Shown here one piece after another: positions 1,419 to 34,161 of a DNA stretch of 34,161 nucleotides. The translations under genes were made by a program, and so were the position numbers. Location: IMG/VR virus record IMGVR_UViG_2534681675_000021, one strand, 5' to 3'. Within the stretch, counting starts at the first letter, position 1. Every line of letters begins with the position of its first letter. The notes below the pieces were generated by a model, which was not told the DNA's origin, did no database searches, and saw nothing but the letters and a program-made list of their open reading frames with translations. The stretch is from a virus (lineage: Duplodnaviria; Heunggongvirae; Uroviricota; Caudoviricetes).

Positions 1419-2432
1419 TTACTCTACTGTGGACACTGTGTGGACACTCTCGACCTCAGTACCACCTCTTAGCGGATTAAGAGAAATGGCGTCCTGAAGG
1501 TACTCTGGCGCAAAATGAGCGTAAACCATAGTTTGCTCAATCCGCGTGTGACCTAGTATCCGTTGTAGCGTGATAATACTTCCTCCATTAATCATGAAAT
1601 GAGTGGCAAAGCTGTGCCTTAGTGCATGTGTAGCTTGCCCCATTGGCAAATCCGGTTTTATTGCTTTCATTGTTCGTCTGAAGCGAGGGTAATCAGCATC
1701 AGGGAATAAAAAACCTCGTTTGTTATCCGCGATCATTTTGGCAACAGCCTCTGAGATCGGGACGGTGCGTGGTTTGTTTGTTTTCGTTTTAACAAACGTG
1801 ACGCGGTTATGGATGATATTTTCTGCTTTCAAACGAGCTGCTTCTCCCCAACGTGCTCCAGTACTCAGGCAAAGAATCGCAATCTTTTTGTTGTCGCCGT
1901 CAAGAGCAGCAAGCAGTAAGGCAATTTCTTCCTGCGTGAGATAGCCTGTGTCTGGTTTTTCCTCCTTAAGCCTTTTTGTCCCTCTGATAGGGTGCTCACC
2001 AAAGAATAACTCCGCTTCAATCAGGGCTGTAAACATGCCGCTAATACATGTTAAATCACGATTGATACTCGAAGGTTTAATACCCTGACTTCTTCGGGTG
2101 GCGCAGTACTGGCTGATAAGCGATTTCGTAATTTGAAATGCGCATGGGTCATTCGTTATTTTTGTGAAGATTTCAATTTTTCCAAGATTAGATTTCCCAT
2201 GCTCTTCGTGTTTACCCTTTAAATCCCACCAGATCTGTGTCAGCTCCGACAGACGTCGCTTGTCTTTTGGTTTTGATAGCCATTCTTTATTGTGGTGGTT
2301 GTACAACGTGTATTTCTCGAAAGCGACAGCTTCGCTTTTCTTATCAAACTTCCTACGGATGCGTTTTCCATTACGTCCAGTAGGGCGGATGTCCACTTCA
2401 TATCGACCATCATCGAGTTTTTTGATTGCCAT
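1419..2432 (-). CDS. int: P2-type tyrosine integrase, 337 aa
   Basis: 337 aa; C-terminal catalytic region with HALRHSFATHFMINGGSIITLQRILGHTRIEQTMVYAHF (R...HxxR...Y tyrosine recombinase signature); adjacent to attL. Confidence 0.95.
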   Translation of the reverse strand: MAIKKLDDGRYEVDIRPTGRNGKRIRRKFDKKSEAVAFEKYTLYNHHNKEWLSKPKDKRRLSELTQIWWDLKGKHEEHGKSNLGKIEIFTKITNDPCAFQITKSLISQYCATRRSQGIKPSSINRDLTCISGMFTALIEAELFFGEHPIRGTKRLKEEKPDTGYLTQEEIALLLAALDGDNKKIAILCLSTGARWGEAARLKAENIIHNRVTFVKTKTNKPRTVPISEAVAKMIADNKRGFLFPDADYPRFRRTMKAIKPDLPMGQATHALRHSFATHFMINGGSIITLQRILGHTRIEQTMVYAHFAPEYLQDAISLNPLRGGTEVESVHTVSTVE

Positions 2433-2547: not shown

Positions 2548-2847
2548 TTAACCAGTCTTTTGACCGGAGTGGGGCGACGTTGTTTCGTTTTGCCCAAAGT
2601 GTGCGAGAGCGGGCGCAATTTGCCCGGACTCAGGAGCGATCTGATTGGTCATGAACCATAAAGTGTATTTGGTGAATTGTGGGGTCTGCAGGATGTTCAT
2701 CATGACATCTGTTGGAGGTGTTGAACGACCACTTTCATAGTAACTCAGCGTGCCATACGGAACCCCTGTTAAATCAGCAAGTTGTTGTCTGCTCAAATAC
2801 TCTGATTTTCGCATTAAGACTATCTTCTCGCTTATCGTGTTTGACAT
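2548..2847 (-). CDS. C: Immunity repressor C, 99 aa
   Basis: 99 aa, divergent from cox, helix-turn-helix-like segment LSRQQLADLTGVPYGTLSYYESG; position and length as P2 C. Confidence 0.9.
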   Translation of the reverse strand: MSNTISEKIVLMRKSEYLSRQQLADLTGVPYGTLSYYESGRSTPPTDVMMNILQTPQFTKYTLWFMTNQIAPESGQIAPALAHFGQNETTSPHSGQKTG

Positions 2848-2961: not shown

Positions 2962-3237
2962 ATGAGCAAGCAAGTAACACTCATGACTGATGCGATTCCT
3001 TATCAGGAGTTCGCAAAACTAATAGGAAAATCGACAGGAGCGGTTCGTCGGATGATCGATAAAGGAAAGCTGCCTGTAATTGATATGACCGATCCACAAT
3101 CAGCTTCAGGTCGTGCAGGTGAATATTGGGTATACCTTCCGGCATGGAATAACGGACTAAAACTGGCTTATGAAAGCCGCCCTAAAGAGATTCGTGACGG
3201 CTGGTTGATGTGGTTAGGTCTCGGTGAACCACGTTAA
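2962..3237 (+). CDS. cox: Cox (excisionase and repressor of Pc), 91 aa
   Basis: 91 aa, first gene of the early operator-distal transcript; length and position as P2 Cox. Confidence 0.9.
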   Translation: MSKQVTLMTDAIPYQEFAKLIGKSTGAVRRMIDKGKLPVIDMTDPQSASGRAGEYWVYLPAWNNGLKLAYESRPKEIRDGWLMWLGLGEPR

Positions 3238-5001: not shown

Positions 5002-7276
5002 AGCCTCCGGGCGTTTTGTCCCTCCGTCAGCATTTGCCGCAGGCACCGGTAAGGCGTTTACCGGTGCTTATGCATGGAACGCGCCACGCGAGGCTGTCGG
5101 GCGCGAAAGACCACTTACACGTGACGAGATGCGTCAGGTGCAAGGTGTTTTATCCACGATTAACCGCCTGCCTTACTTTTTGCGCTCGCTGTTTACTTCA
5201 CGCTATGACTACATCCGGCGCAATAAAAGCCCGGTGCACGGGTTTTATTTCCTCACATCCACTTTTCAGCGTCGTTTATGGCCGCGCATTGAGCGTGTGA
5301 ATCAGCGCCATGAAATGAACACCGACGCGTCGTTGCTGTTTCTGGCAGAGCGTGACCACTATGCGCGCCTGCCGGGAATGAATGACAAGGAGCTGAAAAA
5401 GTTTGCCGCCCGTATCTCATCGCAGCTTTTCATGATGTATGAGGAACTCAGCGATGCCTGGGTGGATGCACATGGCGAAAAAGAATCGCTGTTTACGGAT
5501 GAGGCGCAGGCTCACCTCTATGGTCATGTTGCTGGCGCTGCACGTGCTTTCAATATTTCCCCGCTTTACTGGAAAAAATACCGTAAAGGACAGATGACCA
5601 CGAGGCAGGCATATTCTGCCATTGCCCGTCTGTTTAACGATGAGTGGTGGACTCATCAGCTCAAAGGCCAGCGTATGCGCTGGCATGAGGCGTTACTGAT
5701 TGCTGTCGGGGAGGTCAATAAAGACCGTTCTCCTTATGCCAGTAAACATGCCATTCGTGATGTGCGTGCACGCCGCCAGGCAAATCTGGAATTTCTTAAA
5801 TCGTGTGATCTCGAAAACAGGGAAACCGGCGAGCGCATCGACCTTATCAGTAAGGTGATGGGCAGTATTTCTAATCCTGAAATTCGCCGGATGGAGCTGA
5901 TGAACACCATTGCCGGTATTGAGCGTTACGCCGCAGCAGAGGGTGATGTGGGGATGTTTATCACGCTGACCGCGCCGTCAAAGTATCACCCGACACGTCA
6001 GGTTGGAAAAGGCGAAAGTAAAACCGTCCAGCTAAATCACGGCTGGAACGATGAGGCATTTAATCCAAAGGATGCGCAGCGTTATCTCTGCCGTATCTGG
6101 AGCCTGATGCGCACGGCATTCAAGGATAATGATTTACAGGTCTACGGTTTGCGTGTCGTCGAGCCACACCACGACGGAACGCCGCACTGGCATATGATGC
6201 TTTTTTGTAATTCGCGCCAGCGTAACCAGATTATCGAAATCATGCGTCGCTATGCGCTCAAAGAGGATGGCGACGAAAGAGGAGCAGCGCGAAACCGTTT
6301 TCAGGCAAAACACCTTAATCGGGGCGGTGCTGCGGGGTATATCGCGAAATACATCTCAAAAAACATCGACGGCTATGCACTGGATGGTCAGCTCGATAAC
6401 GATACCGGCAGACCTCTGAAAGATACTGCCGCGGCTGTTACTGCATGGGCGTCAACGTGGCGCATCCCGCAATTTAAAACGGTTGGTCTGCCGACAATGG
6501 GGGCTTACCGTGAACTACGCAAATTGCCTCGCGGCGTCAGCATTGCTGATGAGTTTGACGAACGCGTCGAGGCTGCACGCGCTGCCGCAGACAGTGGCGA
6601 TTTTGCGTTGTATATCAGTGCGCAGGGTGGGGCAAATGTTCCGCGCGATTGCCAGACTGTCAGAGTCGCCCGTAGCCCGTCGGATGAAGTTAACGAGTAC
6701 GAGGAAGAAGTCGAGAGAGTGGTCGGCATTTACGCGCCGCATCTCGGCGCGCGTCATATTCATATCACCAGAACGACGGACTGGCGCATTGTGCCGAAAG
6801 TTCCGGTCGTGGAGCCTTTGACTTTAAAAAGCGGCATCGCCGCGCCTCGGAGTCCTGTCAATAACTGTGGAAAGCTCACCGGTGGTGATACTTCGTTACC
6901 GGCTCCCACACCTTCTGAGCACGCCGCAGCAGTGCTAAATCTGGTTGATGACGGTGTTATCGAATGGAATGACCCGGAGGTCGTGAGGACGCTCAGGGGG
7001 GCATTAAAACACGGCCTGAAAACACCAAATCGTCAGCAAAGAAACGGAAGCCCGTTAAAACCACATGAAATAGCACCGTCGGCCAGACTGACCCGGTCGG
7101 AACGATTGCAAATTACCCGTATCCGCGTTGACCTCGCTCAGAACGGTATCAGGCCGCAACGATGGGAGCTTGAGGCGCTGGCGCGTGGCGCGATCGTAAA
7201 TTCTGACGGGAAAAAATTCACGTATCCGGTCGCTGATGAGTGGCCGGGATTCTCAACAGTAATGGAGTGGACATAA
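4991..7276 (+). CDS. A: Replication initiation protein A (rolling-circle nickase), 761 aa
   Basis: 761 aa from ATG 4991 (the track start at 4949 is a TTG). Length and position as P2 A. Confidence 0.85.
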   Translation: MAVKASGRFVPPSAFAAGTGKAFTGAYAWNAPREAVGRERPLTRDEMRQVQGVLSTINRLPYFLRSLFTSRYDYIRRNKSPVHGFYFLTSTFQRRLWPRIERVNQRHEMNTDASLLFLAERDHYARLPGMNDKELKKFAARISSQLFMMYEELSDAWVDAHGEKESLFTDEAQAHLYGHVAGAARAFNISPLYWKKYRKGQMTTRQAYSAIARLFNDEWWTHQLKGQRMRWHEALLIAVGEVNKDRSPYASKHAIRDVRARRQANLEFLKSCDLENRETGERIDLISKVMGSISNPEIRRMELMNTIAGIERYAAAEGDVGMFITLTAPSKYHPTRQVGKGESKTVQLNHGWNDEAFNPKDAQRYLCRIWSLMRTAFKDNDLQVYGLRVVEPHHDGTPHWHMMLFCNSRQRNQIIEIMRRYALKEDGDERGAARNRFQAKHLNRGGAAGYIAKYISKNIDGYALDGQLDNDTGRPLKDTAAAVTAWASTWRIPQFKTVGLPTMGAYRELRKLPRGVSIADEFDERVEAARAAADSGDFALYISAQGGANVPRDCQTVRVARSPSDEVNEYEEEVERVVGIYAPHLGARHIHITRTTDWRIVPKVPVVEPLTLKSGIAAPRSPVNNCGKLTGGDTSLPAPTPSEHAAAVLNLVDDGVIEWNDPEVVRTLRGALKHGLKTPNRQQRNGSPLKPHEIAPSARLTRSERLQITRIRVDLAQNGIRPQRWELEALARGAIVNSDGKKFTYPVADEWPGFSTVMEWT

Positions 7277-7728
7277 TGGCAAAAATTCACGAGTTAAAGC
7301 TGCACGCAAAATATTTCGACCTTGTGCTGGAAGGAAAGAAACGCGCAGAGTTTCGGAAAAATGACCGTAATTATGAGCGCGGGGACACGTTGATTTTGCA
7401 TGAATGGGTGCAGGGTGTGTATACGGGGCGAAAGGTTGAAGCCCGGATAACAGATGTTACTGACCTGTCAGACTGGCTGGAAGATTATGTCTTGCTAAGT
7501 ATTGAGCGGCTTAATACAGGCGCATATGAGATTGTGAACTGGAAAGAACTTAGTGAGCGTGGTCTGGTATTCAGAATTAATCATGAAATTATGCATCAGC
7601 TCGGCCTTGCTGTTATGTATGAATCAGAGACGGGGATGTCTGGCGGGGCAATGGTAGCCACGGATGGAGCATGGAACTATTCAGATGAACAGATGGAGCG
7701 TGCAAAGCAAAACGGGTGGCTTGGATAA
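7276..7728 (+). CDS. ASCH/DUF3850-like protein (P2 orf91 position), 150 aa
   Basis: ATG overlaps the A stop (TAATG). N-terminal KIHELKLHAKYFDLVLEGKKRAEFRKNDRNYERGDTLILHEW resembles the DUF3850/ASCH signature. Confidence 0.6.
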   Translation: MAKIHELKLHAKYFDLVLEGKKRAEFRKNDRNYERGDTLILHEWVQGVYTGRKVEARITDVTDLSDWLEDYVLLSIERLNTGAYEIVNWKELSERGLVFRINHEIMHQLGLAVMYESETGMSGGAMVATDGAWNYSDEQMERAKQNGWLG

Positions 7729-7934
7729 TGCACAGAATACCAGGCGAGATACCGCACCATAAAACTAAAAATATCAAGCTGATGGCTATTGTTCAGCGTT
7801 TACAGCGGATTATGGTCAACGAAAATCTGACGCCCGATGAGCTGGTCGGGTGTGCCGAAATAGTACGGGATAATTACGGGCGGCTTAACTATATCGGTCA
7901 GTCCAGAGTTGCGCCACCACCACGCAGACGATAG
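7716..7934 (+). CDS. Small hypothetical protein, about 70 aa
   Basis: ORF overlapping the end of the previous gene; no recognisable motif; could be non-coding. Confidence 0.3.
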   Translation: MAWIMHRIPGEIPHHKTKNIKLMAIVQRLQRIMVNENLTPDELVGCAEIVRDNYGRLNYIGQSRVAPPPRRR

Positions 7935-8157
7935 AGAACGCCGCCAGTCGTGAAACTTGTTTTCAGGGCTGGCGGGGTTGAACAACGAGCGAAGCGAGAC
8001 GTTAGTTGACAGACATATTTTTACTACGTTGGTGCTGGTTTTTGACGGTTGAAAGGAGTTAGGTTGGAGAGCTAACAACTTACAAATATTCAAAAGTAAG
8101 CATCCTGTTGCTAACATGAGGTTGATTTTTTATGTGGATGATGCAAAAAGGATAGCT

Positions 8158-8889
8158 ATGGATACTATAATCGCTTTTCTATCACTCGCTTTTTTCGTTG
8201 CTTTCTTCATCGGGCTAATCAAGCCATCACTGGTGCGAATGCCAAACCGCAAACGTGCAAGTGCGGTTTATCTCGGAGGAGGTTTTGTATTGAGCATAAT
8301 TGGTTCAATACTCTATCCAACAGAAAAAAGCCAGCCAGTTGCTAAAACTGAAACATCAACCGTTGCAGAACACAAAGTCCAAAAAACATTCGAATATGGT
8401 GAAAAAACACTCAAGGAATATCGGAACGAGTCAAAGAAAACACGACACGATATTGTGAATAGTTACATTGATTTTAAGGAAGTTCCAGCCACCGCGTCAG
8501 ATGCGTTTTATGCCTGCATGAGTGAGTATACATTTACCAAAGATGATGAGTTGAAACTCGGTGATGTTCTTGGGTGGTGCTTTAATGATTATGAAAATGA
8601 CCCGAGTTCACTAAACAATAAAATCAATCTTGATACATTTCAGAGTAATTTTAGTGGTTGGGATGGTTCTTATCGTCCATTGGAAAAACTAATTAAAGAT
8701 AATATGAACGATGATTCATCTTATAAACATGTGTCAACGGTATATCATCTGGTTTTGAATAAAGACCCGCATGCCATTGTGAAAACCACGTTTCGCGGAA
8801 CTAATGCTTATGGCGGAGTGGTGAAACAGACGATTGCTGCGCGTGTCAATGTAGAAACAGGTGAGGTTGTATCAATTATAAGTGAGTGA
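8158..8889 (+). CDS. Cargo protein 1: membrane-anchored protein of unknown function (two predicted N-terminal TM helices, about 180-aa soluble C-terminal domain)
   Basis: AGGA Shine-Dalgarno 7 nt before ATG 8158 (an alternative ATG at 8116 has no SD). Strongly AT-rich relative to the phage backbone. Hydrophobic segments IIAFLSLAFFVAFFIGLI and AVYLGGGFVLSIIGSILY. Occupies the P2 tin/old position. Confidence 0.6.
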   Translation: MDTIIAFLSLAFFVAFFIGLIKPSLVRMPNRKRASAVYLGGGFVLSIIGSILYPTEKSQPVAKTETSTVAEHKVQKTFEYGEKTLKEYRNESKKTRHDIVNSYIDFKEVPATASDAFYACMSEYTFTKDDELKLGDVLGWCFNDYENDPSSLNNKINLDTFQSNFSGWDGSYRPLEKLIKDNMNDDSSYKHVSTVYHLVLNKDPHAIVKTTFRGTNAYGGVVKQTIAARVNVETGEVVSIISE

Positions 8890-8910
8890 ACTGTGCCAGA
8901 ATGATAAAGA

Positions 8911-8930
8911 TGCCAGCATTTATGCTGGCA
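8911..8930. other. Intergenic hairpin (TGCCAGCA-TTTA-TGCTGGCA) between the two cargo genes
   Basis: Perfect 8-bp inverted repeat with a 4-nt loop, seen directly; function unknown. Confidence 0.3.
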
Positions 8931-8987
8931 ATCATAAAAATAGTGACTAGCAAAAATTGGTGTCTGGTTTTAATGTGAGATTAGAAA

Positions 8988-9686
8988 ATGAAGAGATGTA
9001 AATATATTTTAAGAGGTTTGTTGCTGAAGTTTAAAAGTATAAGTTCTATGCATTTGTTATTTGTTTTAATAACGGCTTGTCTATTCTTTTTTATAGGGTG
9101 TTACGTGGGTTATAGTGGTATTGGTTTGAATGGTGACACTAAATACCAATTAATTACAATACCTTTTTTGACCATGTTGGGTACTTGGGTTTCTGGGGTG
9201 GGAGCATTTTCTGCTGTTGCGACATCATTGTTGTTGGCACACCGTTCGCTAAAGGAAAATTCAGAAGAAATTGCTATTCGATATAGCATGGTGTTAATAC
9301 CATCAATGTACTTACCTAGCACTACAGATACAGCAATATCAATAACCATAACAAACAAAAGAAAAGTAAGGAGTAATATTCAATCGGTTGTTTTGCAATT
9401 TTCTAATAATAAAGCAATGAATATATGGGTAAACCCCGGGACGCTTATCTCTGGCAAGTTACCGCATGTTTTAGAAGACTATGGTGATATATTGATGCTT
9501 ATAATTCCAGAGAGCATTACCGCATCAGTAACTGATGAGGGGTTCGTAAAAGAATGTCAGGGGAATACTCTTGGAGAAGGTAGCGTCGTAGTTCACACAA
9601 CGACAAAAACATTTGTAAAAAAATTAACATTACCTCAAGTTAAGCCATTTAATGATAAATTTAAGTCTGTATTGACGAAGCCGTAA
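8988..9686 (+). CDS. Cargo protein 2: membrane-anchored protein of unknown function (two predicted TM helices, about 150-aa soluble C-terminal domain)
   Basis: AT-rich; hydrophobic segments LLFVLITACLFFFIGCYVGY and ITIPFLTMLGTWVSGVGAFSAVATSLLLA; same strand and spacing as cargo gene 1; no recognisable catalytic motif. Confidence 0.6.
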   Translation: MKRCKYILRGLLLKFKSISSMHLLFVLITACLFFFIGCYVGYSGIGLNGDTKYQLITIPFLTMLGTWVSGVGAFSAVATSLLLAHRSLKENSEEIAIRYSMVLIPSMYLPSTTDTAISITITNKRKVRSNIQSVVLQFSNNKAMNIWVNPGTLISGKLPHVLEDYGDILMLIIPESITASVTDEGFVKECQGNTLGEGSVVVHTTTKTFVKKLTLPQVKPFNDKFKSVLTKP

Positions 9687-9811
9687 GAGGTGCGTTGCGT
9701 TGCATTTTTTTGCATCTTCAAGGATTAATTTCTGCATCTTTATTTTGCCAGTACTGATGTGCTTTTAATGGACTCATGCAACTGCATTAAAATCGACCCA
9801 TGAAGCGGGCG

Positions 9812-9830
9812 GGCGAGGCGGGGAAAGCAC
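9812..9830. other. cos site candidate (19-nt cohesive-end sequence GGCGAGGCGGGGAAAGCAC)
   Basis: Matches the P2/186 cohesive-end sequence as I recall it; lies in the GC-rich non-coding region next to portal gene Q, as in P2. Confidence 0.55.
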
Positions 9831-18735: not shown

Positions 18736-19186
18736 GTTTAAGCGTTTTGAAGACCGGCTGGCTGGACTGATTGAATCGCTGTCACCGTCAGGGCGTCGGC
18801 GACTGGCGGTAGATATTGCGAAGAAGCTGCGCCAGCGCCAGCAGCAGCGAATTAAATTACAAAAAGCCCCGGATGGTACGCCGTATGTACCGAGAAAAAA
18901 CCAACCAGTACGAAATAAGAAAGGCCGGATAAAGCGGGAAATGTTTGTGAAATTACGCACTAACCGGTTTATGAAAGCAACAGGTAGCGAGAGTGCGGCG
19001 GTGGTGGCGTTTGCCAGCGGAGTACAACGAATTGCGCGAGTACATCAATTAGGGCTTAGGGATAAGCCGGGGCGTAATAGTGCTGTGGTGGAATATCCTG
19101 TTCGTGAGTTATTTGGTTTTGACAAGGAATCTATACAATTGATAGAAAGGGAGTTATTAGTGATTCTATCGAAAGATGTTATATGA
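18728..19186 (+). CDS. S: Tail completion protein S
   Basis: About 150 aa; position as P2 S. Confidence 0.85.
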   Translation: MNEFKRFEDRLAGLIESLSPSGRRRLAVDIAKKLRQRQQQRIKLQKAPDGTPYVPRKNQPVRNKKGRIKREMFVKLRTNRFMKATGSESAAVVAFASGVQRIARVHQLGLRDKPGRNSAVVEYPVRELFGFDKESIQLIERELLVILSKDVI

Positions 19187-19938
19187 GACGGGTGTTTGTG
19201 GATAAAAAGTTTTCCATTTTGAGAAAAAGAGTAAAGCATTCTCAAAAGAAAGTTATGGATTGTATTATTGCTGACCATAATGCTGATATATGTGTGTTAT
19301 GCGGGAGTTCTGACGATATTACTCGTGAGCACATTATTCCTCAGTGGGCCTTTGAGTCAAATGCTGAAAAATCTTTAATTAATAAAAAGAATAATCAGTC
19401 AACTCATTACATTAAAGCCACTGTACCAGCATGCAGAGTGTGCAATTCTGATTTGCTGGGAGTGTTTGAGTATAACCTGAAGAAATTTCTTACGGAAAAG
19501 AGAGGGGAGGAGTTAACAGATTATGAGTATGATTGCATCATATGGTGGTTGCAATACATGGGTTTTAAGTTGCAATTAATGGATTTGCGGAACCGCTTTC
19601 TCAGGTATAAAGGTGGTGATTATATCCCGTTTCTTGCAAACTTCCCGGTTGCAATGTTTTGGGGGAATGTCGATACGACGCCGGGGGATGTCTTCAGGAT
19701 TATACGAAAATCGCGACGCAATCTGATGTCGAAATGGAAGGATAAAAAACATAATTCTTTGATGGTTTTTGAAACATCAAACAAGAGTTTTCATTTCTTT
19801 CATAAGGTTGATGAATTTATTTTTATTGAAATTCCTCAGGTTAAGAAGGCGTTTTTCTTCTTTTTTAATAAAGAATTTGACAGCCATGATTTAGCTCATG
19901 AGGAGTGTATGAAGATTATAGAGAAGTGCTACAACTAA
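19183..19938 (+). CDS. Cargo protein with N-terminal HNH-nuclease-like motif plus about 160-aa C-terminal domain of unknown function
   Basis: ATG overlaps the S stop (ATGA). Motif CVLCGSSDDITREHIIPQW...ACRVCNS (C-x2-C, HxxP, C-x2-C-N) is HNH-like. AT-rich. Inserted between S and V where P2 carries the moron orf30. Confidence 0.6.
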   Translation: MRRVFVDKKFSILRKRVKHSQKKVMDCIIADHNADICVLCGSSDDITREHIIPQWAFESNAEKSLINKKNNQSTHYIKATVPACRVCNSDLLGVFEYNLKKFLTEKRGEELTDYEYDCIIWWLQYMGFKLQLMDLRNRFLRYKGGDYIPFLANFPVAMFWGNVDTTPGDVFRIIRKSRRNLMSKWKDKKHNSLMVFETSNKSFHFFHKVDEFIFIEIPQVKKAFFFFFNKEFDSHDLAHEECMKIIEKCYN

Positions 19939-20015
19939 TATTTGTTATGTTGTGTCACAGCTGACAGAACCCTCCATGATTGCTGCTGGTATCGTCCAGC
20001 GGCATCCTTCCCGTT

Positions 20016-20651
20016 ATGAACACTCTCGCAAATATTCAGGAACTCGCGCGCGCACTGCGCAATATGATTCGCACCGGCGTTATCGTCGAAACCGACCTTA
20101 ACGCCGGTCGCTGCCGTGTGCAGACCGGCGGCATGTGCACCGACTGGCTTCAGTGGTTGACCCATCGTGCCGGGCGTTCGCGTACATGGTGGGCACCTTC
20201 CGTGGGGGAACAGGTGCTGATTCTGGCCGTGGGCGGTGAACTTGACACGGCGTTTGTTCTGCCGGGGATTTATTCCGGTGATAACCCCGCGCCGTCTGCG
20301 TCGGCGGATGCCCTGCATATCCGTTTCCCTGACGGGGCGGTGATTGAGTATGAACCCGAAACCAGTGCACTCATGGTAAGCGGAATTAAAACGGCCAGCG
20401 TGACGGCTTCTGATTCTGTTACTGCCACGGTGCCGGTGGTCATGGTGAAAGCATCAACCCGCATCACCATGGACGCACCGGAGGTGGTCTGCACCAACAG
20501 GCTGATTACCGACACGCTGGAAGTGCAGAAGGGCGGGACGATGCGCGGCAACATTGAACACACCGGCGGTGAACTCTCATCAAACGGTAAGGTACTGCAT
20601 ACCCATAAACACCCCGGCGACAGCGGCGGCACAACCGGGAGTCCTCTATGA
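20016..20651 (+). CDS. V: Baseplate spike/assembly protein V, 211 aa
   Basis: 211 aa from MNTLANIQEL; position and length as P2 V. Confidence 0.9.
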   Translation: MNTLANIQELARALRNMIRTGVIVETDLNAGRCRVQTGGMCTDWLQWLTHRAGRSRTWWAPSVGEQVLILAVGGELDTAFVLPGIYSGDNPAPSASADALHIRFPDGAVIEYEPETSALMVSGIKTASVTASDSVTATVPVVMVKASTRITMDAPEVVCTNRLITDTLEVQKGGTMRGNIEHTGGELSSNGKVLHTHKHPGDSGGTTGSPL

Positions 20652-21908: not shown

Positions 21909-22512
21909 TTCGCGACTGCTGCCGACCGGCTCATCACCGCTTGAAGTCGCTGCCGCAAAAGCCTGTGCGGAAATTGAAAAAACGCCGGTCAGTATTCGTG
22001 AGCTGTGGAACCCGGACACCTGCCCGGCAAATCTGCTGCCGTGGCTGGCGTGGTCATTTTCGGTTGACCGCTGGGATGATAAGTGGCCGGAAGCGACAAA
22101 ACGCGCTGTTATCCGCGATGCGTATTTCATTCACTGCCATAAGGGCACTATAGGCGCAATCCGGCGTGTGGTGGAGCCGCTCGGCTATCTGATTGAGGTG
22201 AGGGAGTGGTGGCAGCTCAACGAGGAGCCGGGGACGTTCCGCATCGTTGTTGGCGTGCTTGAGCAGGGTATTACCGAGGAAATGTATCAGGAGCTGGAGC
22301 GCCTCGTTGCTGATGCAAAACCGGCAAGCCGCCATCTGACGGGACTGGCTATCAGTTTAAGTACAACCGGCAACATTTTTGCCGGTGCGGGATGCTATCA
22401 CGGTGACGCCCTGACGGTTTATCCCTACACCCCGGAGGCCATTATTGTCGGAGGGGATTATTTCCCGGCCTCGGCCATTCATTTAATTGATAACCTGAGA
22501 GTAAACGCATGA
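21901..22512 (+). CDS. I: Baseplate protein I
   Basis: Position between J and H; start may lie at an internal ATG. Confidence 0.8.
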   Translation: MSDSRLLPTGSSPLEVAAAKACAEIEKTPVSIRELWNPDTCPANLLPWLAWSFSVDRWDDKWPEATKRAVIRDAYFIHCHKGTIGAIRRVVEPLGYLIEVREWWQLNEEPGTFRIVVGVLEQGITEEMYQELERLVADAKPASRHLTGLAISLSTTGNIFAGAGCYHGDALTVYPYTPEAIIVGGDYFPASAIHLIDNLRVNA

Positions 22513-23816
22513 CAGTGAAATACTACGCCATTCTGACTAATCAGGGCGCAGCACGGCTGGCTAACGCGACGATGCTCGGCAGTAAGCTGAATCTGACGCA
22601 AATGGCCGTTGGTGATGCGAATGGTGTCTTGCCGACACCAGACCCGGCACAGACAAAACTGATTAACCAGAAACGCATCGCGCCGCTGAATCTTCTGAGT
22701 GTTGACCCGAACAACCAGAGCCAGATTATTGCGGAGCAAATCATCCCTGAGAACGAGGGCGGATTCTGGATCCGTGAGATTGGGCTTTATGATGATGAAG
22801 GCGTACTCATTGCGGTGGCGAACTGCCCGGAAACGTACAAACCGCAGTTGCAGGAAGGCAGTGGTCGTACCCAGACTATCCGCATGATTCTGGTTGTCAC
22901 GAATACCGAAGCTATTACGCTGAAAATCGACCCGTCGGTGGTACTGGCGACCCGTAAATACGTGGATGATGAAGTCCTGGAATTAAGGCTGTATGTGGAT
23001 GACCAGATGAGAAACCACATTGCCGCACAGGATCCTCATACCCAGTATGCACAGAAACATAATCCGACATTTACCGGAGAACCAAAAGCGCCGACGCCTG
23101 CCGCAGGGAATAACACCACGCGGATTGCGACCACTGAGTTTGTTCAGGCCGCTATTACCGCTCTGATTAACGGTGCGCCAGCCACGCTGGACACACTGAA
23201 AGAAATTGCCGCAGCCATTAACAATGACCCGAAATTCAGTACCACCATTAACAATGCGCTGTCAGGTAAGCAGCCACTGGATGAGACGCTGACTCATTTG
23301 AGTGGAAAGGATGTTGCCGGTCTTCTCGCATACCTTGGTTTGGGAGAAGGCTCTGCATTACCTGTTGGTGTGCCTGTTCCATGGCCTTCAGCCACACCGC
23401 CAACAGGCTGGCTGAAATGCAACGGTGCGGCTTTTTCTGCTGAAGAATACCCGGAACTGGCAAAGGCTTATCCGACAAATAAATTGCCTGATTTACGTGG
23501 TGAGTTTATTCGTGGCTGGGATGACGGGCGCGGTATTGATGCAGGACGTGTTTTATTGAGCATTCAGACAGGGATGCTGGAAAAACACCGCCATATTGTT
23601 GTTGCCAATGATGGTTACGACACAAAAGATGAATGGGAACTGGCTACGATTTTCAAAAAGACATACACACAAGGACGGGGACTTGATGCCGCAAATACAG
23701 GAGGGAGTCTGATCCCATCACCGACACTTCATTCACGAGGGAGTATCGGTAATACTGGCGGGAGTGAAACCCGTCCACGAAATATTGCATTTAACTATAT
23801 CGTGAGGGCTGCATAA
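22509..23816 (+). CDS. H: Tail fibre protein H (constant N-terminal part plus currently expressed variable C-terminal part), 435 aa
   Basis: Position as P2 H; the C-terminal third lies inside the invertible segment, downstream of the crossover site at 23323-23348. Confidence 0.85.
   Translation: MTVKYYAILTNQGAARLANATMLGSKLNLTQMAVGDANGVLPTPDPAQTKLINQKRIAPLNLLSVDPNNQSQIIAEQIIPENEGGFWIREIGLYDDEGVLIAVANCPETYKPQLQEGSGRTQTIRMILVVTNTEAITLKIDPSVVLATRKYVDDEVLELRLYVDDQMRNHIAAQDPHTQYAQKHNPTFTGEPKAPTPAAGNNTTRIATTEFVQAAITALINGAPATLDTLKEIAAAINNDPKFSTTINNALSGKQPLDETLTHLSGKDVAGLLAYLGLGEGSALPVGVPVPWPSATPPTGWLKCNGAAFSAEEYPELAKAYPTNKLPDLRGEFIRGWDDGRGIDAGRVLLSIQTGMLEKHRHIVVANDGYDTKDEWELATIFKKTYTQGRGLDAANTGGSLIPSPTLHSRGSIGNTGGSETRPRNIAFNYIVRAA
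23323..23348. other. Left recombination (crossover) site of the tail-fibre invertible segment, inside H
   Basis: 26-bp sequence TTCTCGCATACCTTGGTTTGGGAGAA is 21/26 identical, in inverted orientation, to 25191-25216, including a shared GGTTTGGGAGAA half-site that encodes G-L-G-E in both fibre reading frames. Confidence 0.6.
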
Positions 23817-24418
23817 TGGATAACGCCGTATTAAATAGCGAGCTTATTGCCACGAAGGCGGGGAATATTACCGTCTATAACTATGATGGTAAAACTCGGG
23901 AATATATTTCTACTTCAAATGAATATCTTGCCATTGGTGTCGGTATCCCTGCATATTCCTGTCTGGATGAACCTGGTATACATAAGGCGGGTTATGCTAT
24001 CTGCCGTTCGATGGATTTAAACTCATGGGAATATGTGCCAGACCATCGCGGTGAAATCGTCTATAACACCGAAACGGGAGACGCCAAAGAAATCACAGCT
24101 CCGGGTGATTATCCTGAAAATACAACCACTATCGCCCCGTTAACGCCATTCGATAAATGGGATGGTAAGAAATGGGTGACCGATACTGAGGCACAGCATA
24201 GCGCCGCAGTAGACGCGGCAGAAGCACAGCGTCAGTCACTGATTGATACTGCAATGGCTTCCATCAGTCTGATTCAACTGAAATTGCAGGCCGGGCGGAA
24301 GCTGACGCAGGCAGAAACCACCCGACTTAACGCTGTGCTGGATTACATTGACGCGGTGACGGCAACAGATACGAGCACCGCGCCGGATGTCATCTGGCCT
24401 GAACTGCCGGAGGCGTAG
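23816..24418 (+). CDS. G: Tail fibre assembly chaperone G, 200 aa
   Basis: ATG overlaps the H stop; position as P2 G. Confidence 0.8.
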   Translation: MDNAVLNSELIATKAGNITVYNYDGKTREYISTSNEYLAIGVGIPAYSCLDEPGIHKAGYAICRSMDLNSWEYVPDHRGEIVYNTETGDAKEITAPGDYPENTTTIAPLTPFDKWDGKKWVTDTEAQHSAAVDAAEAQRQSLIDTAMASISLIQLKLQAGRKLTQAETTRLNAVLDYIDAVTATDTSTAPDVIWPELPEA

Positions 24419-24830
24419 GCCATTCAATATCTGGCGCACCGGAAGTATCGACCAGTTCCAGTGCGTCCAGGTAATCCAGCCACAAATTATATTGCGCCAG
24501 TTCGTCACCTTTCAGACGACCAATAGCCGCTTTACCAGGCCATTGTTTACTGTTCATATAATCGTTGGCCTGATTAATCAATTGCTGCTTCTCCAGTTCG
24601 GCTGCAGCAATTTGTTCCTCATGTGTTGGTGGTGGAATTTCGGACCATGCAGGAAAACCATTTTCTCCAGCGATACGGATTTTTCCTTTCGGCGGTAATC
24701 CGGAAAACTCAATATACACTTGCTCATCAACTTCAACAGCATCATCTGGCCATGAGTCAGCTTGAGTGTAATCCTCTTTCATCTCCAGCGGATAGAAAGA
24801 GTTTGTAGTCGCGGAATATATGTAATTCAT
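24390..24830 (-). CDS. Alternative tail fibre assembly chaperone (G'), 146 aa, inverted orientation
   Basis: Convergent with G and overlapping its 3' end; C-terminus (...WLDYLDALELVDTSGAPDIEWPTPPA) parallels the G C-terminus (...VLDYIDAVTATDTSTAPDVIWPELPEA). Confidence 0.7.
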   Translation of the reverse strand: MNYIYSATTNSFYPLEMKEDYTQADSWPDDAVEVDEQVYIEFSGLPPKGKIRIAGENGFPAWSEIPPPTHEEQIAAAELEKQQLINQANDYMNSKQWPGKAAIGRLKGDELAQYNLWLDYLDALELVDTSGAPDIEWPTPPAVQAR

Positions 24831-24851
24831 TTTTCACTCCATATAGCTAAA

Positions 24852-25244
24852 TTAACAGCCTAACGCTAAAAATGAAGCGCCGAGGCCAGGAGTACTGGCT
24901 CTGGATATAAATTTAACCGGGTCGGGACTAAAACCTGCACAGGCAATATAACCAACAGCCCCGCTATCTGGTGTATAGTCTTGTGAGACCAAAACACGCA
25001 GACATCTGTTTGGAAATGCAATTGGGAAATGGGTTACTACATCCTGTGCAATGCCTGGAGCGCCGATTGAGCCCCACTGAAGAATAAAACCTGATGGTAA
25101 TTTTTGATATCCAGTACCTGAAACAGAAAGCGTGAAGCTACCCATATCAGGTATCTGATTCGCCCCTGTCCCTACATTCCTTTTAGCCGCTTCTCCCAAA
25201 CCAACGTTTATGAAAATGCAGAGATAACGGGCAACTGGCATCAT
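24852..25244 (-). CDS. Alternative tail fibre variable C-terminal segment (Hv'), silent in this orientation
   Basis: Minus-strand ORF directly upstream of G'. It contains the shared G-L-G-E junction encoded at the right crossover site; it would fuse to the constant part of H after inversion. The annotated Met is probably not a real start. Confidence 0.6.
25191..25216. other. Right recombination (crossover) site of the invertible segment
   Basis: TTCTCCCAAACCAACGTTTATGAAAA, an imperfect palindrome resembling hix/gix-type sites and an inverted repeat of 23323-23348; lies just upstream of the invertase gene. Confidence 0.6.
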
Positions 25245-25265
25245 CTCCGGTTTTTATTCAGGGGG

Positions 25266-25865
25266 ATGCTCATGCTTATTGGCTATGTACGCGTGTCAAC
25301 AAATGACCAGAACACGGAATTGCAGCGTAACGCGCTGGAGTGCGCAGGATGCGAGCGGATTTTTGAGGATAAAATCAGCGGCACGAAGTCCGACCGACCG
25401 GGACTGAAAAAACTGCTCAGAACATTATCAGCAGGTGACACTCTGGTAGTCTGGAAGCTGGACCGGCTGGGGCGTAGTATGCGGCATCTGGTCATTCTGG
25501 TTGAGGAGCTGCGCGAACGCGGCGTTAATTTTCGCAGCCTGACAGATGCTATTGATACCAGCACGCCGATGGGGCGTTTTTTCTTTCATGTGATGGGTGC
25601 CCTGGCTGAAATGGAGCGAGAACTCATTGTCGAGCGGACACGCGCTGGACTGGAAGCGGCCAGAGCCAAAGGGCGTATTGGTGGCAGACGTCCGAAGCTC
25701 ACCGCGAGTGAGTGGGAGCAGGCCGGGCGGTTGCTGGCTGCGGGGGAATCTCGTCAACGTGTGGCGCTGATTTTTGATATTGGCCTGTCCACGCTCTATA
25801 AAAAATTCCCCTCATCAGCGACAAAGAATAAATTGTGTCATCCCTTAGCCAACCGGGACAAATAG
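25266..25865 (+). CDS. Serine DNA invertase of the Hin/Gin/Cin/Pin family, 199 aa
   Basis: N-terminal MLIGYVRVSTNDQNTELQRNAL (catalytic Ser in YVRVST) and overall strong resemblance to e14 Pin as I recall it; C-terminal helix-turn-helix; adjacent to the invertible fibre segment. Confidence 0.9.
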   Translation: MLMLIGYVRVSTNDQNTELQRNALECAGCERIFEDKISGTKSDRPGLKKLLRTLSAGDTLVVWKLDRLGRSMRHLVILVEELRERGVNFRSLTDAIDTSTPMGRFFFHVMGALAEMERELIVERTRAGLEAARAKGRIGGRRPKLTASEWEQAGRLLAAGESRQRVALIFDIGLSTLYKKFPSSATKNKLCHPLANRDK

Positions 25866-32308: not shown

Positions 32309-32527
32309 ATGTTTCATTGTCCTTTATGCCAGCATGCCGCACATGCGCGTACAAGTCGCTATATCACTGACACGACAAAAGAGCGTTATCACCAGTGCCA
32401 GAACGTGAATTGCAGCGCCACGTTCATCACTTATGAGTCGGTACAGCGATACATCGTGAAGCCGGGAGAAGTCCACGCCGTAAGACCGCACCCGTTGCCG
32501 TCAGGGCAGCAAATTATGTGGATGTAA
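32309..32527 (+). CDS. ogr: Ogr late-gene transcriptional activator (zinc finger), 72 aa
   Basis: 72 aa from MFHCPLCQHAAHARTSRY; C-x2-C ... C-x4-C zinc-binding motif; GGAAGAGG Shine-Dalgarno; last gene before att. Confidence 0.9.
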   Translation: MFHCPLCQHAAHARTSRYITDTTKERYHQCQNVNCSATFITYESVQRYIVKPGEVHAVRPHPLPSGQQIMWM

Positions 32528-32540
32528 TTACAAACAGGAA

Positions 32541-32564
32541 GCCCCTCAGTCGAGGGGCTTTTTT
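32541..32564 (+). terminator. Rho-independent terminator after ogr
   Basis: GCCCCTC-AGTC-GAGGGGC perfect 7-bp stem followed by TTTTTT. Confidence 0.7.
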
Positions 32565-32628
32565 GTCGATGTGGTCAATGTGTGGACGTGACCAGAAATA
32601 AATCCTTTTATTTCATTGTATTACGCGT

Positions 32629-32655
32629 AAAAAATAAGCCCGTGTAAGGGAGATT
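32629..32655. other. attR core (27 bp), identical to attL core
   Basis: Exact repeat of 1313-1339; lies within the 3' end of cyaR. Confidence 0.85.
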
Positions 32656-32715
32656 ACACAGGCTAAGGAGGTGGTTCCTGGTACAGCTAGCATTTTATGG
32701 GTTATGTTTTTCAGC
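32629..32715 (-). ncRNA. cyaR: CyaR (RyeE) small regulatory RNA, about 87 nt
   Basis: Minus-strand sequence GCTGAAAAACATAACCCATAAAATGCTAGCTGTACCAGGAACCACCTCCTTAGCCTGTGTAATCTCCCTTACACGGGCTTATTTTTT matches CyaR as I recall it, with terminator hairpin and U-run; located next to yegQ as in E. coli. Confidence 0.8.
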
Positions 32716-32799
32716 GAAACGGATGATAACCTTAATAAATGCAGCTGTATGTGATCGGTTTCTAAGAATTTTCCATCCGGGAAAAATAATCGAAATTAA

Positions 32800-34161
32800 T
32801 CACTTACCGTGGGGGTTACGCGTGGTTTCCCCGGAGAAATTTCGCATCAGCAGCGCGTAATTTAGCTCAAGATCCTGCGGGACCGGGATCCACACAGTAT
32901 AACCATCGCCAGGTGCGACCGGCATTGCTTCGCCTTTGGCGTTTTCCATATGCTCAAGGGTAAAGTTAATGTTCCCTTGCGGCGTCATCAGCTCAAGGCT
33001 GTCGCCAACGGAGAATTTATTTTTCACCGCTACCGCCGCGAGGTCGCCCTTGCGCTCACCGGTAAACTCACCAACAAACTGCTGGCGGTCAGAAACTGAA
33101 TAACCGTATTCGTAGTTCTGATAATCGTCGTGAGTATGACGACGCAGGAAACCTTCGGTATAGCCACGATGCGCCAGACCTTCCAGAGTTTCCAGCAGGC
33201 TGGTATCGAATGGTTTTCCCGCAGCTGCGTCATCGATAGCTTTACGGTAAACCTGCGCGGTGCGTGCGCAATAGTAGAAAGATTTTGTACGACCTTCGAT
33301 TTTCAGCGAATGCACGCCCATTTTGGTCAGGCGTTCAACGTGGGCGATAGCGCGCAGATCTTTCGAGTTCATGATGTAAGTGCCGTGCTCATCTTCAAAC
33401 GCGGTCATATACTCGCCCGGACGCTGAGCTTCTTCGATCATAAACACTTTGTCGGTTGGCGCGCCGATACCCAGCGTCGGCTCAACATTTTGCACCGGAA
33501 TCGGCTCGTACTTGTGCACGATGTTGCCAACGTCATCTTCTTTCCCTTCCTGGACGTTGTACTCCCAGCGGCAGGCGTTGGTGCAGGTGCCCTGGTTCGG
33601 GTCGCGCTTGTTGATATAGCCAGAGAGCAGGCAGCGACCGGAGTAGGCCATGCACAGCGCGCCGTGAACGAAGATCTCTACCTCCATATCCGGCACCTGA
33701 TTGCGGATCTCTTCAATCTCTTCCAGCGACAGCTCGCGAGAGAGGATCACGCGGGTCAGGCCCATTTGCTGCCAGAATTTCACCGTCGCCCAGTTCACGG
33801 CGTTAGCCTGTACCGAGAGATGGATCGGCATTTCAGGGAAGTGCTCACGCACCAGCATAATCAGCCCTGGATCGGACATTATTAGCGCATCCGGCCCCAT
33901 TTCCACCACCGGTTTCAGGTCACGGATAAAGGTTTTCAGCTTGGCGTTGTGCGGTGCAATGTTGACCACAACATAAAACTTTTTCCCCAGCGCGTGGGCT
34001 TCATTAATGCCGAGCTGAAGATTTTCGTGGTTGAATTCGTTGTTGCGCACACGCAGGGAGTAACGCGGCTGGCCCGCATAAACAGCATCTGCGCCATAAG
34101 CGAAAGCGTAACGCATATTTTTCAGCGTTCCCGCCGGGGAAAGGAGTTCCGGTTTAAACAT
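32800..34161 (-). CDS. yegQ: U32-family peptidase-like protein YegQ (TrhP, tRNA hydroxylation protein), 453 aa, host gene
   Basis: Complete 453-aa ORF (MFKPELLSPAGTLKNMRYAFAYGADAVYAGQPRYSLR...); U32 family features; higher GC and host-like codon usage; adjacent to cyaR. Confidence 0.85.
   Translation of the reverse strand: MFKPELLSPAGTLKNMRYAFAYGADAVYAGQPRYSLRVRNNEFNHENLQLGINEAHALGKKFYVVVNIAPHNAKLKTFIRDLKPVVEMGPDALIMSDPGLIMLVREHFPEMPIHLSVQANAVNWATVKFWQQMGLTRVILSRELSLEEIEEIRNQVPDMEVEIFVHGALCMAYSGRCLLSGYINKRDPNQGTCTNACRWEYNVQEGKEDDVGNIVHKYEPIPVQNVEPTLGIGAPTDKVFMIEEAQRPGEYMTAFEDEHGTYIMNSKDLRAIAHVERLTKMGVHSLKIEGRTKSFYYCARTAQVYRKAIDDAAAGKPFDTSLLETLEGLAHRGYTEGFLRRHTHDDYQNYEYGYSVSDRQQFVGEFTGERKGDLAAVAVKNKFSVGDSLELMTPQGNINFTLEHMENAKGEAMPVAPGDGYTVWIPVPQDLELNYALLMRNFSGETTRNPHGK

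Follow-up and report, generated by a model that had tools for sequence, protein, structure and literature searches.

Can the gene for a small regulatory RNA remain whole when a prophage of more than thirty kilobases is inserted into its 3' end? This question is raised by a stretch of viral DNA of 34,161 nucleotides (hereafter the window), in which an earlier note had placed the right attachment core of a prophage within the terminator of the minus-strand gene for the sRNA CyaR. In this regard, we asked where the gene ends, what the attachment cores are and what is left of the gene on either side of the prophage. A scan of the whole window against Rfam returned CyaR_RyeE (RF00112) at 32632-32717 on the minus strand with 100.7 bits (E = 3e-19), far above the gathering score of 47 and covering model positions 1-85 of 85, and no other Rfam family was matched anywhere in the window at the gathering threshold. 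The cyaR (ryeE) gene of E. coli K-12 MG1655 (b4438, annotated at 2167114-2167200, 87 nt) maps to window positions 32715 to 32629, which places the attR core at 32629-32655 on the last 27 nt of the gene, as claimed, and inside the annotated 87-nt gene rather than outside it. The identity with K-12 is base for base and extends over the gene body, the terminator and at least 45 nt of the upstream promoter region (32716-32760, minus strand). The earlier note had proposed an alignment with cyaR from a prophage-free strain as a check; the alignment of the window gene with such an empty site revealed no differences.

The surroundings of the gene are those of the host chromosome. The gene lies downstream of yegQ/trhP (32800-34161, minus strand, placed by the RefSeq annotation of the matching empty site and by K-12), so the synteny typical of CyaR/RyeE is kept, and its promoter is identical to that of the characterised K-12 gene, which the literature indicates to be CRP-dependent. 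A CRP-cAMP-dependent RNA of about 87 nt, which characterises CyaR/RyeE, would be expected in this lysogen. Among complete E. coli genomes, 5424 of 5426 carry cyaR, with a median of one place per genome that carries it.

Comparison of the two ends of the prophage revealed two exact copies of the 27-mer AAAAAATAAGCCCGTGTAAGGGAGATT, one at 1313-1339 (the attL core, B-O-P') and one at 32629-32655 (the attR core, P-O-B'), and no third copy was found in the window even when three mismatches were allowed. The identity of the two copies extends by one T to the left and by nothing to the right, and an independent repeat finder reported the same pair. Such a repeat could in principle be fortuitous, or belong to something unrelated such as transposon ends, for which only the existence of a repeat speaks. 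However, none of 100 dinucleotide-preserving shuffles contained a match and none was expected by chance, all 27 positions agree with the attP core that the P2 record AF063097 gives at 24356-24382, host sequence gives way to P2 sequence precisely at the boundaries of the repeat, and an empty site exists. We rejected a chance or unrelated repeat, whose probability we consider negligible.

The DNA on the inner side of both cores also matches P2. The flanks align without gaps and nearly identically to the annotated P arm, IHF, Cox and P' arm sites of P2, and by this alignment predicted arm-type Int sites (repeats resembling TGTGGACA, the consensus given in PMC3448106), an IHF site and Cox sites flank the core. 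Transfer of positions from P2 features 24399-24496 places the predicted Cox-binding region and the Int P' arm sites at 1356-1453 beside attL, and transfer from features 24293-24357 places the predicted Int P arm sites at 32566-32593 and the predicted IHF site at 32597-32630 (together 32566-32630) beside attR. The arms, the repeats identical to the attP core and the joined flanks, which equal a natural empty site, all bear out the claim that the sRNA terminator serves as attB.

For the empty site, we rebuilt attB in silico from 300 bp to the left of attL, one copy of the core and 300 bp to the right of attR. Of the 5426 complete E. coli genomes, 882 contain the rebuilt sequence without interruption, two of these in fully identical form (100%), and the gene order there is yegS-yegR-[site]-yegQ/trhP-yegP-baeR. 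The occupied form was represented by the junction at attR, in which the ogr terminator, P arm, core and cyaR follow one another as in the window, and was found in 1166 of the same 5426 genomes. We take this attB to be locI, the preferred P2 site of E. coli C; the integration of P2 at this preferred E. coli site was reportedly described by Barreiro and Haggard-Ljungquist in 1992. The window prophage shares with P2 at locI the 27-bp core, the integrase (99%), the layout of P arm, IHF, Cox and P' arm sites, and the chromosomal position between yegQ/trhP-cyaR and yegR. It differs in its cargo, with tin/old, orf30 and Z/fun replaced, and in the C-terminal part of its tail fibre, which is different and apparently invertible.

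Termination of CyaR and its binding by Hfq require the terminator hairpin and the U-tract. In the predicted fold, the 3' part of CyaR forms an 11-bp stem closed by a loop of 6 nt, and UAUUUUUU follows; this 3' part of 52 nt folds at -18.9 kcal/mol (z = -5.2), and a terminator scan located the same hairpin at 32664-32637 on the minus strand. The U-tract behind the 11-bp stem is at least 6 nt long, as expected of an Hfq-binding 3' end. The earlier note had named loss of this hairpin, or departure from the canonical 3' end, as what would speak against an intact gene; at attR the sequence is canonical, identical to both K-12 and prophage-free cyaR, and hairpin and U-tract are predicted to be intact. 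In RNA sense, the core starts 2 nt before the end of the 5' stem arm and runs through the 6-nt loop and the entire 11-nt 3' arm to the end of the 8-nt tail UAUUUUUU. The terminator (32637-32664) thus straddles the core boundary, because the other 9 of the 11 nt of the 5' stem arm sit outside the core in host-only DNA.

This partition bears on how much of the 3' end the phage contributes. The core reads as an imperfect inverted repeat, AATAAGCCC and GGGAGATT, around a central GTGTAA, and an imperfect inverted repeat around a centre is the usual layout of a tyrosine-recombinase core. Within the core, the 3' stem arm is therefore the probable place of the crossover, and at attR the U-tract would come from the phage. 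The earlier note had the phage supply the whole core. This part needs refinement, since strand exchange would fall inside the core and only its phage-proximal portion would physically be phage DNA, namely the U-tract and, probably, part of the 3' stem arm. We also considered that the terminator as such had been donated to CyaR by a phage. This was rejected: the consensus of the Rfam family retains the loop with a varying stem, and the exact core ends the cyaR gene of Kluyvera, where the downstream DNA is unrelated.

The left copy of the core has no such context. In RNA sense, no cyaR body precedes it, as the earlier note had described; the phage P' arm and int stand there instead. A permissive Rfam scan found no CyaR match around attL even at E <= 10, the terminator scan found no terminator-like site there, and the attL core together with the preceding P' arm forms no stable hairpin (z = -0.5). 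The expectation of a single functional cyaR in this lysogen agrees with these results and with the median of one place per genome noted above.

Based on these results, we propose that a P2-type temperate phage entered the classical preferred site of P2 by site-specific recombination dependent on Int and IHF. The partners would be the attP core of the phage and an attB of the same 27 bp, with which the host sRNA gene cyaR ends. As attP has these 27 bp without a change, the crossover would duplicate the core. The attR copy would remain fused to the body and promoter of cyaR and for this reason still encode the complete terminator hairpin and U-tract, while the attL copy, fused to the P' arm and int, would be a non-functional fragment. 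With one intact copy at attR and only this fragment at attL, the lysogen would retain exactly one wild-type cyaR, and excision by Int, Cox and IHF would rebuild the empty site precisely. The sequence identities, the gene content, the empty site and the intact predicted RNA structure are direct observations; the recombination steps are inferred from the biology of P2, the 99-100% identity of Int and Cox and the nearly identical arm sites, and the crossover position and the expression of CyaR are inferences as well. We found no sequence evidence against P2-type integration at cyaR with preservation of the gene, and we regard this explanation as almost certain.

The element between the cores is a P2-type prophage (Peduovirus) of 31.3 kb, occupying 1340-32628 on the plus strand, as indicated by nucleotide identity and by the full-length essential P2 proteins that it encodes. 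By megablast, its early region is 98% identical to Peduovirus P22H4 and to phage 9W, and 97-98% identical to P2. The P2-type lysis-lysogeny set adjoins attL. It consists of the tyrosine integrase gene int (1419-2432, minus strand; Pfam Int_N and Phage_integrase; 334 of 337 residues identical to P2 Int by BLASTP, 99%), the immunity repressor gene C (2548-2847, minus strand; 100% identical to P2 C; Pfam HTH_3) and cox, encoding the excisionase and Pc repressor (2962-3237, plus strand; 100% identical to P2 Cox; Pfam Phage_Cox). At the other end, the late-gene activator gene ogr (32309-32527, plus strand) encodes a protein 100% identical to P2 Ogr (Pfam Ogr_Delta) and is followed by a terminator hairpin at 32539-32560, which scores as terminator-like on the minus strand too.

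An alternative is an immobile remnant, fixed at the site as in K-12, and there is some ground for considering it: the K-12 site holds such a remnant, and empty sites carry an older relic. The content of the prophage argues for an active element instead. In a tblastn search with P2 proteins, Q, P, O, N, M, L, X, Y, K, R, S, V, W, J, I, FI, FII, E, T, U, D, ogr, int, C, cox, B and A were all matched over their full length, a set that covers the structural, replication and lysis functions of P2, and the identity of the essential proteins was mostly 94-100%, with S (55%) and I (82%) as exceptions. H was matched only over its N-terminal part, its C-terminal part being different, and no match to P2 G was found in the window by the same search. 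Int, Cox, C, both att cores and the P2 cos sequence (9812-9830) are intact, and the relatives P22H4 and 9W, at 98% identity, were sequenced as phages. Given this gene set, a fixed immobile remnant seems unlikely, and a dead one likewise.

The prophage differs from P2 in the three known variable regions, and the att system is unchanged. In the first, 7497-9811 stands in place of P2 orf91', tin and old. An ORF at 7240-7728 has DUF3850/ASCH and DUF7415 domains, and the ORFs at 7800-8117 (minus strand), 8116-8889 and 8988-9686 had neither a PADLOC match nor a Pfam match above the curated cut-off, one of these cargo ORFs giving a weak, sub-threshold match to Pfam EpuA. In the second, 18953-20015 replaces P2 orf30 with unrelated sequence, and its ORFs at 19183-19938 (plus strand) and 19935-20318 (minus strand) gave no Pfam or PADLOC matches. 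A known defence system among the ORFs that replace tin/old and orf30 is thus not supported, with zero PADLOC matches; the cargo of the tin/old hotspot (7497-9811) could be uncharacterised anti-phage genes. In the third, 22338-25844 stands in place of the C-terminal part of P2 H, G and Z/fun, and H in the window is a 435-aa protein. Tail-fibre C-terminal and assembly cassettes lie inverted at 24390-25244 on the minus strand, a serine invertase (Pfam Resolvase and HTH_7) is encoded at 25266-25865, and 27-bp inverted repeats occur at 23323-23349 and 25190-25216. Since these three features occur together, the region 22338-25865 looks like a Gin/Cin-type invertible host-range segment that has replaced Z/fun of P2.

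The cryptic prophage PR-X of K-12 (ogrK-yegZ, the "ogr-D' remnant") offers a direct comparison at the same site. On its attR side, it is base-identical to the window across ogr, the terminator, the P arm, the core and cyaR, and the K-12 annotation lets PR-X overlap the last 18 nt of cyaR. Only about 630 bp of it are left (2167183-2167811), whereas the window holds the full 31.3-kb prophage. By BLAST, PR-X has a partial attL core of about 18 bp, to which the last 210 bp or so of gene D are directly fused; ogrK, the P arm, the core and cyaR come next. Loss of one internal segment from a full prophage would account for this arrangement.

Preservation of the sequence of CyaR does not by itself fix its behaviour, and integration might alter the RNA through the phage DNA newly placed downstream of it. 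The DNA just past the U-tract reads ACGCGTAAT... in occupied sites and ATGCATAAA... in empty sites, and because of this difference termination efficiency could differ slightly between the two. Leakiness of the terminator has also been reported: read-through was about 41% when it was assayed in an hfq mutant on a double-terminator plasmid (PMC9765468), and on this ground transcripts starting at the CRP-dependent promoter of cyaR might extend into the prophage. However, neither the hairpin nor the U-tract is altered; 70 nt further downstream, the reverse of the ogr terminator (32560-32539) provides another terminator-like hairpin on that strand, which could act as a back-stop for read-through past the CyaR terminator; and K-12, in which CyaR was characterised, already has the same phage-derived DNA downstream. 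We therefore judge it improbable that integration changes termination of CyaR or lets the promoter read antisense across the P arm of attR and ogr, and the specific case of CRP-cAMP-driven transcription running across the P arm and IHF sites of attR and antisense to ogr appears more improbable still. If it were true, P2 excision or late-gene control would be coupled to the carbon status of the host.

The host side of attL pointed to an older history of the site. The arm at 1205-1312 and the ogr terminator and P arm of P2 (compare 32538-32628) are collinear, and the arm resembles a fossil attR. It contains, in order, a hairpin, the exact 15-mer TCGATGTGGTCAATG (1254-1268, compare 32566-32580), a stretch of the form G.GACC...AT.AATCC, the motif TTAYGCRT and the core; the part between the 15-mer and the core would correspond to a degenerate second Int arm repeat and the IHF region. 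The local alignment of this relic arm with the phage arm scored 33, against 15.7 +/- 2.1 for shuffled sequences (maximum 24). A purD motif match at 1187-1286 on the plus strand, over the relic hairpin, reached 26 bits against a gathering score of 41 and was set aside as probably due to chance. The relic arm was present in all prophage-free Escherichia and Shigella sites examined, including O104:H4 and O157:H7, and it is best kept, and more P2-like, in Escherichia sp. MOD1-EC7003. As the host arm is collinear with the P2 P arm and occurs in prophage-free sites, the "empty" attB appears to be what a far earlier P2-type integration left behind. If the arm is such a fossil, the CyaR terminator may have been a landing pad for P2-type phages since before Escherichia diversified.

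The core itself is not confined to E. coli. Among bacteria sampled at one genome per species, Escherichia, Shigella and Kluyvera carry the exact core, as do two genomes with the label Enterobacter hormaechei, and at least 120 stretches of viral contigs in IMG/VR contain it too. In 16 of the 17 loci scanned, a CyaR gene ends with this core; the remaining locus is attL in a lysogen of E. ruysiae. The DNA downstream of the core in Kluyvera is quite unlike the relic arm of Escherichia. The DNA directly beyond the core varies widely among Kluyvera strains, and some of it resembles coding sequence. A different P2-like P arm follows the core in K. intermedia and in E. coli ECDA1023. Since the DNA after the core differs from strain to strain in Kluyvera, several distinct mobile elements appear to share the 27-bp core.

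The use of this site has been recorded before. In the list of Archer et al. (2011), the P2-type elements of strains W (Wphi2), K-12 (ogr-D') and B (P2*B) have "cyaR RNA" as their insertion site (PMC3032704, Table 2), and Bobay, Rocha and Touchon (2013) referred to E. coli ryeE as "previously known to be targeted by phages", citing Wassarman et al. 2001 (PMC3603311). A P2 prophage at the cyaR terminator is therefore already known, being annotated in K-12 and present in published prophage tables, and it is common, with about one fifth of complete E. coli genomes occupied; as such, the locus adds no new biology. Phages are also found at the 3' ends of other small RNA genes, namely tRNA genes (186, HP1), the tmRNA gene ssrA (Fels-2, SopE-phi) and the Salmonella sRNA gene ryeB/sdsR (PMC3448106, PMC3603311, PMC3333887). 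In all of these, as here, integration regenerates the gene from a copy of its 3' end that the phage brings along; compared with the phages that target tRNA and tmRNA genes, the target here is the terminator of an Hfq-dependent sRNA, and the identity segment is short, at 27 bp. For annotation, this means that a 27-bp overlap of cyaR with the prophage boundary is legitimate and that such a lysogen should be scored as cyaR+. More broadly, the locus is a clean case of the rule that temperate phages target the conserved, hairpin-containing 3' ends of RNA genes and supply a replacement copy, and the host gene survives integration because the phage brings that copy of the targeted 3' end.
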